DNA of 25,409 nt from a virus (taxonomy: Duplodnaviria > Caudoviricetes), in IMG/VR virus record IMGVR_UViG_3300047561_000262, positions 1 to 25,409 of that record; one strand, written 5' to 3'. Below the pieces are notes generated by a model. It had not been told where the DNA came from. It ran no database searches and saw only the letters and a program-made list of their open reading frames with translations. The translations under genes and the position numbers were made by a program. Below, in pieces: positions 1 to 5,012 of this stretch (within the stretch, counting starts at the first letter, position 1; each line of letters begins with the position of its first letter).

Positions 1-44
1 ATTTGTAGGTGTTTTCCCTAATATGTTGTTTTTTTGTCAGGATT

Positions 45-300
45 GCAAGATTCAAGGGCATAGCTATCCCTACTATGAGGAATAGCTTGTCAGTCTTGCT
101 TAGTTCTGAGGTGTATATATTGCTTCGATGTCTTTGTCGTGCCTAGGTCTGTCTTTATCACATCATCGGTCTATCCGTACAGTACGGTTCTTTTCTCTAT
201 CCAAGCAATAACGGGTAGGAAAGGGTGCATTAGCACCTAGTAGTTTCTAGGGGTATTTACAGCCTTTACCGTAGCAACACCAATGAGTACGGGCTAGGCA
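45..300 (-). ncRNA. candidate structured non-coding element (RNA or ssDNA origin)
   Basis: No ORF in the track. Nested inverted repeats: 140-146/294-300, 175-180/287-292, hairpin 224-237, 10-bp hairpin 62-87 (needs a G-U pair, so favours the minus strand), 45-50/94-99. Confidence 0.35.
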
Positions 301-310
301 GAAATAGAAA

Positions 311-425
311 AACCCCTTAAGGTAGCTCTAAGTTGATCCCACTTGCTAAAAGATTCCACAACTTTTAGTAAATGCTCAAAGCTACCCTAAAGGGTCTATT
401 GGATTTTGTACAAAACAGGGATCAA
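311..425 (-). ncRNA. C4-antisense-like structured RNA / attenuator
   Basis: Minus-strand 396->375 pairs with 332->311 over 22/22 positions including 5 G-U pairs. Inner stem 374->362 / 352->340 with loop UUGUGGAAU. GGGAUCAA (340->333) is complementary to upstream UUGAUCCC (425->418). U-rich tail follows. Confidence 0.55.
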
Positions 426-435
426 TCTGCCTCAT
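382..435 (-). CDS. putative 17-aa leader peptide MRQIDPCFVQNPIDPLG
   Basis: ATG (435-433) overlaps the TAA of the upstream gene (TAATG). TAG at 384-382 lies inside the 5' arm of the long stem. Confidence 0.3.
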   Translation of the reverse strand: MRQIDPCFVQNPIDPLG

Positions 436-995
436 TAGTATAACCCAAGTCTTTCAAAATTAAAATCCCCGTGAAAGCCAAATGTTTTAATATTAGACAG
501 TTCACGCTCAAAACTGAAATAACGGGCTATTTCTACAGGGGCAAACTTGATACCCTGATTTTCTAAATATATACGGTTTAGGTGGCAAATTTGGTCATCT
601 TCATTGTCATCAGAATAAACAAAATTAGGGCTGGCTGTTAGCTGGCAAAGCACTTTTGAGCGTAGGCTAAAGCCACCATTGCCTACCATTCTACCCATTG
701 GATGCCAAGGCCATACTGCCCCAATGTAGTCATATTCTAAAAATTGATTGTTCCAAGCGTCAGGATTAATGATGTACCCATCCCATTGCACTATTAAAAC
801 AAAGTCCGTGTGGATGTGTTTATGCAGTTCTTGAAGGATAAATTTGCTATACGCTTGGCGGCTATTGATTTGGGGATCAGTTATAAAGATTTCACCGCCA
901 AAATCAAAATATTCCTTGCACCTGTCTATTGCTTTTTTAGCCTTGTCAGGCTGTACCGAATCAATACAGCAAAGGGTAATATTATTTAACCTCAT
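435..995 (-). CDS. DUF5672-like putative glycosyltransferase
   Basis: Motifs IVQWDG, YDYIGAVW, GNGGFSLRS, NED, FGFH. Start trimmed to ATG 995, which overlaps the upstream gene end. Confidence 0.75.
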   Translation of the reverse strand: MRLNNITLCCIDSVQPDKAKKAIDRCKEYFDFGGEIFITDPQINSRQAYSKFILQELHKHIHTDFVLIVQWDGYIINPDAWNNQFLEYDYIGAVWPWHPMGRMVGNGGFSLRSKVLCQLTASPNFVYSDDNEDDQICHLNRIYLENQGIKFAPVEIARYFSFERELSNIKTFGFHGDFNFERLGLY

Positions 996-1722
996 ATTCT
1001 TCTTCTGCCATGTGGCAAAAAATCCCACATTCTATGGCTTGTTCCGTAGGGTAATCACCAGCGTCTACAGGCAGTTCTGTAAGCCAAATGCGTTCACCCT
1101 TGTGTTTAAGGATTTTAGCCCCTACCGTGCGTTCTACAGCCGCCATACGGTCAAATTGTTGGGGAAAGTCGTGGCGTATCTTATTCCAGTACCCAAGACC
1201 GCCCTTGACGCATCCAATACAGTTATTGTTTTGGTAACCAAGTTTATACATTGCTGGTAACTCTATTCCAGCCCTGTCAATCATTGCCAAACAATCAGAT
1301 TTAATAAGACCTTTTTCTATCAAAATAGACCATAGGTTTACATCGTTATTGGCATCTATAAACCTGTCTACCCGATCTTGTTCTTCTGCGGTATATCCAA
1401 ATACTTGTATATCAGTAGGTAATTCAAACGCTTTACGCATATCTTTTTTAAGGTGTACGGTGCATGGAGCACCCCCAATACCTACAATATATTTGCGTTT
1501 TTCAAACACTTCATAGATGCTACCGTTGTATTTGTCGTTTTGTATGATTTTTATGGGTTGACCAAACCATTGCTCACAATCACGCATAAACCGTAAATTG
1601 TCAGGGTGTTCTTCTTTTACATGGCAATAAACCACTTCTACAGGGGTTTTGCTTTCAGTAATAGCCAGCTTAGTAGCTACCGCACTTGCCGCACCACAAG
1701 AAAACCAGCTAATTATTCTCAT
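982..1722 (-). CDS. PAPS reductase-like / adenine nucleotide alpha-hydrolase family protein
   Basis: N-terminal PP-loop variant WFSCGAASA, EHPDN, and Cys motifs PCT, NNCIGCVKGG, ECGIFC. Confidence 0.75.
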   Translation of the reverse strand: MRIISWFSCGAASAVATKLAITESKTPVEVVYCHVKEEHPDNLRFMRDCEQWFGQPIKIIQNDKYNGSIYEVFEKRKYIVGIGGAPCTVHLKKDMRKAFELPTDIQVFGYTAEEQDRVDRFIDANNDVNLWSILIEKGLIKSDCLAMIDRAGIELPAMYKLGYQNNNCIGCVKGGLGYWNKIRHDFPQQFDRMAAVERTVGAKILKHKGERIWLTELPVDAGDYPTEQAIECGIFCHMAEEEYEVK

Positions 1723-1949
1723 TCAAGTTCAGGCCAAATTAACTTGTAATTTTTTGGAAACAAGTTTTTACGGGTAATTAGCCCATGTGATTCTTTTTCT
1801 AGGGTGGCGGCTAGAATCACCAGCTTATCGTAAGGAATGTCCCCGTTTTGCCACATAGATACGGCAGGTACGGACACATTGACTAATTTTGATACCCGTG
1901 TACAACCGCCTAAAAGACGAATCATTGCTGTTGATGATATTTTTTCCAT
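1719..1949 (-). CDS. Cro/YdaS-like HTH regulator
   Basis: 76 aa, LGG..VSKLVNVSVPAVSMW...IP HTH pattern, C-terminal IWPEL; first gene of the divergent operon. Confidence 0.8.
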   Translation of the reverse strand: MEKISSTAMIRLLGGCTRVSKLVNVSVPAVSMWQNGDIPYDKLVILAATLEKESHGLITRKNLFPKNYKLIWPELE

Positions 1950-1961
1950 AAGCTATCTTAA
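1948..1961. promoter_or_regulatory. operator site 1 (ATAAGCTATCTTAA)
   Basis: Imperfect TTAAG-N4-CTTAA palindrome overlapping the cro -10 and start codon. Confidence 0.6.
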
Positions 1962-1982
1962 CATTTTTACAACTATTTGCAA
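1955..1982 (-). promoter_or_regulatory. leftward sigma70 promoter, leaderless cro transcript
   Basis: TTGCAA (1982-1977), 16 nt, extended -10 TGtTAAGAT (hexamer 1960-1955); ATG only 5 nt later and no Shine-Dalgarno. Confidence 0.55.
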
Positions 1983-1990
1983 ATAAACTG

Positions 1991-2019
1991 TTGCTTTATG
2001 TTTTAAGTTAGCTTAATAT
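1991..2019 (+). promoter_or_regulatory. rightward sigma70 promoter with operator 2 (TTAAGTTAGCTTAA, 2003-2016)
   Basis: TTGCTT-17nt-TAATAT; short hairpin ACGGTATATGCCGT downstream, then AGGAG RBS. Confidence 0.65.
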
Positions 2020-2059
2020 CTAAGTACGGTATATGCCGTGTTAATTAGGAGAAACTCTT

Positions 2060-2275
2060 ATGAGTGAGCAAGATCAAGACTTACACAGCTTCCAACAACA
2101 TTTGGAACGCATCTTTAAAGACCTCGAGAATGGGGTATTTATTACAGAAGATGAAATAGGTGACCTACGCTATGCGTGTGGCTTGCCATCACCAATTCGC
2201 AACACCCATGTAAACCCCGTTTTGCGTGATGTTATTAACGACTTTTCAAATATTTTTGGAGCAAAAAATGATTAA
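2060..2275 (+). CDS. hypothetical protein
   Basis: 71-aa ORF with AGGAG RBS; first gene after the promoter. Confidence 0.75.
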   Translation: MSEQDQDLHSFQQHLERIFKDLENGVFITEDEIGDLRYACGLPSPIRNTHVNPVLRDVINDFSNIFGAKND

Positions 2276-4715: not shown

Positions 4716-4812
4716 TTCCTTCACGGGAACGGGGGAAACGCAAGGAGTACCCCAACTTATTTAAGGTCTGTGCATTTTCAGCCAGTTAAAGGTTTGCAAA
4801 CCGCCTATTTTT

Positions 4813-4900
4813 AGGGCGTTAAGCCGCCATAGTAGGATGCAGTAAGTTAGGGTTTTTGCGGCTTTCCACCTAACAGTTAGTAACTGCCAAATACTGCCTT
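4813..4900 (+). ncRNA. candidate pseudoknotted structured RNA
   Basis: Stems GCAGT 4839-43 / ACTGC 4883-87 and GTTAGG 4846-51 / CCTAAC 4869-74; loop GCGGCTT 4858-64 complementary to AAGCCGC 4821-27. Confidence 0.45.
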
Positions 4901-4941
4901 GTTGTATTTTTGCATATAAAAGTTTTCCTTAGATAAATATG

Positions 4942-4971
4942 TTGACAGGGTTAAGCTGACTTAACTACACT
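4942..4971 (+). promoter_or_regulatory. sigma70 promoter with operator 3 (TTAAGCTGACTTAA, 4951-4964)
   Basis: TTGACA-18nt-TACACT; hairpin ACTCG..CGAGT follows, then AAGGA RBS. Confidence 0.7.
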
Positions 4972-5012
4972 AGCATTACTCGATTGGCGAGTGAAATAGA
5001 AAAGGATAAAAA

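Follow-up and report, generated by a model that had tools for sequence, protein, structure and literature searches.

A hairpin RNA with two covarying complementarities behind the cro gene of freshwater phages, a candidate self-sensing attenuator

The minus strand of a phage genome fragment encodes, behind a cro-like gene, a hairpin RNA in which a bulge (a') and the loop of an inner hairpin (b') are complementary to two sites, a and b, positioned upstream of the hairpin in the same predicted transcript. Both complementarities covary among relatives, and an RNA of this plan follows cro in 82 of 85 distinct neighbourhoods; one of the remaining loci is truncated and two contain something else. With a probability of about one half, the RNA is a self-sensing attenuator: docking of a' and b' onto a and b in cis would block the terminator, and the released short RNA, by covering the leader sites in trans, would restore termination. 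The RNA class is uncatalogued and common in freshwater phages, with approximately 290 stored stretches estimated for one of its sequence types, family A, alone.

The hairpin RNA and its surroundings in the window

The window, which is the whole stretch of DNA that was analysed, is a linear IMG/VR virus record of 25,409 nt that is 74% complete. Its genes include those for portal, capsid, tail, and endolysin proteins, and its early region is divergent. The minus strand carries the cro-like gene and, following it, a PAPS-reductase-like gene, a DUF5672 gene, the hairpin, about 300 non-coding bases, and the end of the contig. The features, in window positions, are:

1948-1961 and 2003-2016, divergent cro promoter: inverted repeats of the TTAAG-N4-CTTAA type, likely cro operators
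1719..1949 (-): cro-like gene
435..1722 (-): PAPS-reductase-like and DUF5672 genes, variable inserts between cro and the hairpin RNA
437..442 (-): putative -10 promoter box TATACT of the RNA, overlapping the DUF5672 stop
382..435 (-): mini-ORF of 17 codons, overlapping the DUF5672 stop
415..430 (-): P0, 4-bp 5' hairpin (pairs 430-427/418-415), the loop of which displays site a; the RNA likely begins here
419..425 (-): site a, 7 nt in a U-turn-like loop (N-U-N-R), pairing with bulge a'
400..403 (-): site b, complementary to loop b' over 4 bp in the window
375..396 (-): 5' arm of stem P1; 395-384 can fold on itself as hairpin H, which could hide the foot of the terminator
340..374 (-): inner hairpin P2; loop 361-353 with b' (358-355)
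333..339 (-): bulge a', 7 nt, covarying with a
311..332 (-): 3' arm of P1, terminator stem
302..312 (-): U-tract of the predicted intrinsic terminator

Stem P1 (396-375/311-332) has 22 pairs, five of which are G-U, and the preliminary description was correct in assigning it to the minus strand. The minus-strand fold of 300-445 is predicted at -49.2 kcal/mol (z -4.7, with 0 of 200 shuffles as good), compared to -35.6 kcal/mol (z -2.8) for the plus strand. The inner hairpin (374-340) and the bulge (339-333) are as first described. The 8-nt complement of the bulge, which had been placed about 20 nt upstream of the stem, is real and is located at 425-418, 21 nt 5' of the stem. However, C418 and G340 are each held in a stem, so that seven of the eight pairs are free and the complement is 7 nt long. 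The weaker UCCA/UGGA match noticed near 400-403 was found at 403-400/358-355. It is among the weakest alleles of the b site, and most relatives reach 5-9 bp. The 7-mer of site a has 12 copies on the two strands of the window, compared to 1.8 expected; GATC overall is not enriched.

The preliminary description did not include the -10 box (442-437), the P0 hairpin (430-427/418-415), or the U-tract (312-302). P0 forms in the predicted fold of 300-432. In 53 relatives, 100% of its cells are paired, and one pair exhibits two-sided change. A -10 box with at least five of six consensus matches is located 6-9 nt 5' of P0 in 133 of 141 family-A elements, compared to 18 and 23 of 141 in control windows, and is present whatever the preceding gene. 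The signal of a -35 element with at least four of six matches is weaker (45 of the 141 elements, 14 and 7 in controls). Because of the conserved -10 box, the 5' end of the RNA is most likely near 430, downstream of the start codon of the mini-ORF. At the opposite end, a stable stem runs directly into the U-tract, as in intrinsic terminators, and five U of the tract are invariant in the alignment of relatives described below. The element is likely a promoter-led RNA of about 125 nt with a predicted intrinsic terminator end.

The loop that carries site a has U at the second position and a purine at the fourth in 141 of 141 elements, while positions five to seven vary freely. Its first base is U in 70 elements, G in 70, and A in one; locus L040 is without the purine. 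Loops of the YUNR type have been described to speed RNA-RNA recognition (PMC4737173, PMC10798244).

The gap between cro and the RNA promoter (435-1722 in the window, with its counterpart in relatives) is a hot spot of insertion, with PAPS-reductase-like, DUF5672, and methylase genes as cargo. A third TTAAG-N4-CTTAA-type repeat is positioned at 4951-4964, within the gap 4716-5012 of the window, and such a repeat is also found 3' of the non-coding module in relatives. The repeats are likely Cro operators. Searches of 23 related records, 19 of which are at least 90% complete, detected neither an integrase (PF00589) nor a CI-type S24 repressor domain (PF00717); control searches run alongside were positive in 14 and 9 of 14 genomes. 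A scan of GTDB returned six short contigs of metagenome-assembled genomes of mixed taxa, which are probably mis-binned phage DNA, and no host was assigned.

Covariation among relatives and seven sequence types

Scans of viral contigs by protein and pattern identified 139 loci. An iterated DNA profile yielded 53 distinct full-length elements, which form alignment A1; one locus at an edge was dropped. The A1 structure including both pseudoknots is 95.3% paired, with a covariation score of 0.353, which 0 of 500 shuffles reached, compared to 0.148 after shuffling and at most 0.077 in slid controls. P1 is 96-99% paired in A1, and P2 is 98.1% paired, with two-sided change in 7 of its 12 pairs. The a:a' helix (339-333 with 425-419) is 98.9% paired over the 53 relatives, with two-sided change in six of seven pairs. 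The anticipated co-change of bulge and target in homologues is thus borne out, and the loop and its target covary as well. By column, the b:b' helix is only 65% paired in A1, and since indels cause poor alignment of its columns, it was tested sequence by sequence. The Watson-Crick run of b:b' is 6.1 in cognate and 3.4 in non-cognate combinations (42 allele pairs), and that of a:a' is 6.4 and 3.4 (15 pairs); 0 of 2000 permutations reach the cognate value in either case.

A search outside this sample used a pattern in which only stem bases were fixed and which was blind to a:a'. This stem-only scan of viral contigs covered at least 119 of the approximately 290 estimated stretches. The search as a whole returned 125 loci with 112 distinct elements, of which six were dropped after failing the 5'-hairpin pattern; of the 106 kept, 87 were new. 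In the new elements, a:a' is fully paired (7/7) in 78 of 87 and has at least six of seven pairs in 86 of 87, and b:b' has at least six pairs in 83 of 87. The sequences are related, so that these counts represent non-independent events, and the families were parsed with the author's own patterns, which overstates independence.

In the 141 elements, the a/a' pair has 29 alleles and the loop has 56. Pairwise identity is 0.62 in site a and 0.51 in the b' loop, compared to 0.75-0.85 in the stems. Of 16 identical scaffolds that carry at least two allele pairs, 12, by a count from the alleles listed, have changes on both sides. Such rapid change of alleles on an unchanged scaffold fits specificity groups but also neutral drift. 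The bulge a' has a mean unpaired probability of 0.93 over 132 elements, and invariant G-U pairs and unpaired A residues are present in relatives. A mismatched a/a' pair with a 4-bp run is present in L088:5232-5382, which is possibly a recombinant or a chimeric assembly. The allele-paired natural variants provide ready-made compensatory controls.

The RNAs that follow cro belong to seven sequence types: 45 of type A, 19 of B, 8 of C, 5 of E, 3 of D, and one each of F and G. The model R1, which was built from A1, matches types B and F with E-values of 1e-6 to 1e-4 and type G with an E-value of 0.41; types C, D, and E were not matched by it. In type B, six or seven of the seven a:a' pairs are formed in 11 of 11 parsed elements with six alleles, and no b site was found in this family. 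Matched changes in types C to G were seen by inspection. An RNA of this plan also follows the cro of GenBank record MW202674.1, and it has an extra helix, as family E does. In family E, site b abuts the foot of a P1 of 18-19 bp, and P2 has only 4-6 bp; the reach is therefore too short for both docking and P1 in one molecule. A minority of relatives (L111:5221-5310, L114) have a different, shorter element of a hairpin and a U-tract between cro and a full initiator operon.

Modules and initiator domains behind the predicted terminator

Type E has a gene beginning 13-15 nt past the U-tract. In L098, L105, L106, and L110, this gene encodes a full-length replication initiator; L108 has one other gene in between. 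In types A to D, the U-tract is followed directly by one of five non-coding modules, structured RNAs of about 250 nt, which swap independently of the type of the hairpin RNA. The features of this region are:

27..298 (-): module of the window, type 1, non-coding, with an EGFOA-like core at 161-139
6..20 (-): TAGGG..CCTA box preceded by an A-rich run, present behind every module type
L267:12424-12807 and L271:7031-7423 (-): examples of the stand-alone gene for a C-terminal initiator domain

The type-1 module has 71 predicted pairs, ten of which show two-sided change in 25 sequences. The four modules tested have folds with two-sided changes, and no conserved -10 box was found in their first 180 nt. 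The Rfam family RF02932 (Betaproteobacteria-1) matches L018, L084, L173, and L206 at 102-106 bits. RF02955 (EGFOA) scores 29.1 bits in L214, below its cut-off of 37.7, and the match of the window module to EGFOA is sub-threshold at 17.3 bits (E 0.53). Modules of types 0 and 3, of about 250 nt, are found in L004 from 3909, L029 from 4686, and L060 from 4561. They are represented by 67 (type 0) and 23 (type 3) distinct downstream regions, show many two-sided changes, and had no Rfam match in the loci scanned. In the type-4 module, a long hairpin is followed by an exact G7-TA-G7 tract, located approximately 117-120 nt behind the U-tract in four of four loci (L184, L189, L198, L199). The tract is reminiscent of G-tracts that anchor R-loops.

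The TAGGG..CCTA box is present in 80 of 143 downstream regions and in 0 of 71 control stretches of the window. An operator-like repeat is positioned 3' of the module in 104 of 141 elements, and a promoter is present there in 69 of 141. The proteins encoded downstream probably rely on a promoter of their own, and the terminator would therefore gate the module only. Of the 141 module loci, 93 have a gene for a stand-alone protein of about 125 residues and none has one for a form extended by at least 70 residues; one of the others is without a hit and 47 are too short to tell, and three frames of 179 residues stay under the extension threshold. In 23 of 23 records, the protein matches only positions ~160-280 of the 383 of the initiator family phrog_270. 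DUF1376 is absent from all 23 records. It is possible that these phages encode an unrecognised initiator elsewhere.

The RNA and the modules had no nucleotide match among named phages and plasmids, and no known replicon is therefore linked to them. In seven complete genomes, the detrended minimum of GC skew is less than 2 kb from the element in four and far from it in three, a comparison that is confounded by the divergent promoter. Non-coding motifs linked to plasmid replication have precedents in ARRPOF and PAGEV (PMC5737381), and so do R-loop origins (PMC12599619).

Contigs from four of eight listed sequencing runs were placed on the window; the runs contain only 5-7% of the words. Two contigs from RNA libraries cross the terminator (117-335 and 108-405); they are strandless, and DNA may be present in the libraries. 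Two contigs from different studies match the module exactly and end at 168 and 169, and one of them (27-169) has adapter-like sequence at both ends. This is a weak hint of a discrete or processed module RNA of about 143 nt (window 27-169, minus strand), and it does not bear on the ends of the hairpin RNA.

Proposed mechanism, alternatives, and relation to known systems

During transcription, a' and b' would exit the polymerase ahead of the 3' arm of the 22-bp stem and therefore be free to pair with a and b first. In the minimum-free-energy (MFE) fold of a transcript cut at a', a pairs with a'. Because a' and b' are outside the terminator stem, docking could act only sterically. It would close a ring around the 5' arm, into which the polymerase-tethered strand would be unable to wind two turns. 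Self-folding of the 5' arm may add to the block, and the polymerase would read through. The terminated RNA would keep a' and b' exposed, and accumulating copies could bind new leaders of the same allele until termination prevails. The outcome would be feedback on copy number together with exclusion by allele, both directed at the element downstream: the initiator gene in family E and the structured RNA elsewhere. If the model is true, a terminator is switched by docking without competition for its base pairs, and one transcript is both sensor and regulator.

The spacer from P0 to b is tight (8.9 +/- 1.4 nt, CV 0.16), whereas that from b to the foot is loose (CV 0.57) and does not lengthen with P1; stems of 24 bp have a shorter reach. 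The leader thus appears fitted to P2 and not to the complete P1, and the length compensation expected of a static fold-back is absent. Read-through is apparently needed, because the gene of type E starts shortly behind the U-tract and the modules are without a conserved -10 box. The two RNA-library contigs that cross the terminator agree with read-through, although DNA may be their source. Hairpin H is in the MFE fold of 130 of 132 5' arms; it has no two-sided changes, and 500 of 500 shuffles score as high. A rough sum gives -46 kcal/mol for the open state, before loop penalties, and -51 kcal/mol for the terminator, so that the open state is weaker by about 5 kcal/mol. In family A, P2 (12 bp) together with b:b' (about 8 bp) comes close to P1 (22 bp), and fold-back together with the full P1 is possible. 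The claim that cis docking is geometrically impossible with the full P1 was dropped for this family.

An attenuator that acts in cis only, where docking sets a fixed or pause-dependent fraction of read-through and the released RNA senses nothing, is conceivable though doubtful. Pairing within a single molecule explains all the covariation equally well, no second target demands action in trans, and the pairing in the transcript cut at a' agrees with such a device. However, it offers no reason for the many alleles on identical scaffolds or for the U-turn-like loop, although neither point is decisive. Somewhat less probable is a stand-alone small RNA with a constitutive terminator, in which the pairings are static tertiary contacts or dimer or oligomer contacts of a decoy or scaffold. 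Its own predicted promoter, its strong predicted terminator, and the invariant G-U pairs and unpaired A residues suit this explanation, as does the fold-back geometry possible in family A, and kissing loops can oligomerise short RNAs (bioRxiv 10.64898/2026.07.01.735769). On the other hand, such an RNA would leave unexplained the proximity of the family-E gene to the U-tract, the reach too short for a full monomer fold, the lack of length compensation with P1, and the lack of a -10 box in the downstream modules.

The preliminary description proposed control of the type known from the C4 and CI RNAs, and the logic is plausible, given that both complementarities covary. Membership in these families is another matter. 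No Rfam model matched the RNA at gathering score in window positions 1-2100 (only chance hits at E<=10), in 20 related loci, or in the relatives of families A and C; the C4, c4-2, and c4-a1b1 models gave no hit at E<=10 in the same part of the window. Site a recurs in the next 700 nt downstream in 8 of 76 loci, compared to a non-cognate rate of 10.5%, and the downstream complement of the loop is at chance level (5.68 and 5.58 nt). Without an Rfam match and a second target downstream, the RNA is not a member of C4/CI, and it probably works like these RNAs outside their families. An immunity RNA of the C4/CI type, cut by RNase P, repressing the downstream genes and maintaining a lysogen in place of CI, would share the two-site layout with upstream targets, and it agrees with the missing S24 domain. 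Nevertheless it is improbable: the foot of the stem is GAC and not the GGW reported for C4 (PMC5320573), the RNA ends in a U-tract and not in a C4-type processed end, and the 23 records have no integrase. That it would stand in for CI as an immunity element is hypothetical for these phages, in whose 23 records no sign of a lysogenic cycle was seen. Less probable still is a leader-peptide attenuator operated by the translationally coupled mini-ORF, which had been seen as making the switch ribosome-sensitive. The ORF is indeed present at 435-382 and starts on the DUF5672 stop. Its ATG, however, recurs at the same place in 5 of the 141 elements, with 1 of 22 for those behind DUF5672, and is upstream of the likely transcription start, an ORF of at least ten codons in the same frame exists in 12 of 141, and the distance from a to P1 is spread over all three frames (61/33/47). 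A conserved translated mini-ORF over the switch was therefore rejected, and the ORF of the window is judged to be due to chance and outside the system. Least credible of all is a plain terminator with complementarities by chance; the strong stem with its U-tract and the 12 copies of the 7-mer are compatible with it, but the covariation, seen both within and outside the sample, and the recurrence of the plan in seven types contradict it.

The self-sensing attenuator may be part of an RNA-only control of replication, a tentative extension that is possible but more doubtful than the attenuator. The terminated RNA would count genomes and exclude co-infecting phages of the same allele, the gated RNA would replace the origin-binding half of the initiator and open or prime the origin, and the C-terminal domain would load the host helicase. 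The common slot, the gate, and the loss of the N-terminal half of the initiator tie the orphan structured RNAs to one testable role. If true, this would provide a function for the orphan Betaproteobacteria-1 and EGFOA RNAs and for at least three uncatalogued modules, one of them with the G7-TA-G7 tract.

No description of a matching system was found in open-access full text; the supplementary lists of PMC5737381, PMC2864571, and PMC10690425 may still name it. Betaproteobacteria-1 (RF02932) and EGFOA (RF02955; background in bioRxiv 10.64898/2026.07.01.735769) occupy the slot behind the RNA and correspond to the gated module, not to the hairpin RNA. The RNA resembles P1/P7 C4 (RF01695), c4-a1b1, and c4-2 in having unpaired a' and b' segments with allele-specific upstream complements, except in family B, which has a only. 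C4 systems have a second target set, a2/b2, downstream. C4 is a 77-nt three-stem product of RNase P that starts with GGW, and a small change in a' sets its specificity (PMC5320573; further background in PMC2864571, PMC8198154, PMC8201110). C4 acts on icd-ant. Family A, in contrast, has a single long bulged stem, 86 nt in length, with a GAC foot followed by the U-tract.

The P4 CI RNA derives from the leader of a replication operon, base-pairs with an upstream site of the transcript it comes from, and thereby promotes premature termination; it requires an upstream and a downstream site (PMC4825925). The upstream self-target and the position ahead of replication genes, as predicted here from sequence, are similar to those of P4 CI (seqA/seqC). 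However, CI is cut from its transcript and needs seqC, whereas the RNA described here would end at a terminator and has no downstream site. Unlike P4, these phages display no sign of a lysogenic cycle in the 23 records (no PF00589 or PF00717), and a plasmid-like or carrier state is possible. In the case of IsrK of Gifsy-1 in Salmonella, the short terminated isoform binds the read-through isoform in trans (PMC4825925). Short and read-through isoforms of the same transcript would also pair in trans here, but IsrK activates translation of a downstream ORF, whereas this RNA has no conserved ORF and its predicted effect is on termination. The pT181 attenuation and the IncI pseudoknot switch are, like CopA/CopT, plasmid antisense controls of replication. 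In CopA/CopT, a YUNR loop is recognised in the leader of a replication gene (PMC10798244). The antisense RNA in such plasmid systems is transcribed from the opposite strand, whereas the regulator proposed here would be the terminated product of the same strand.
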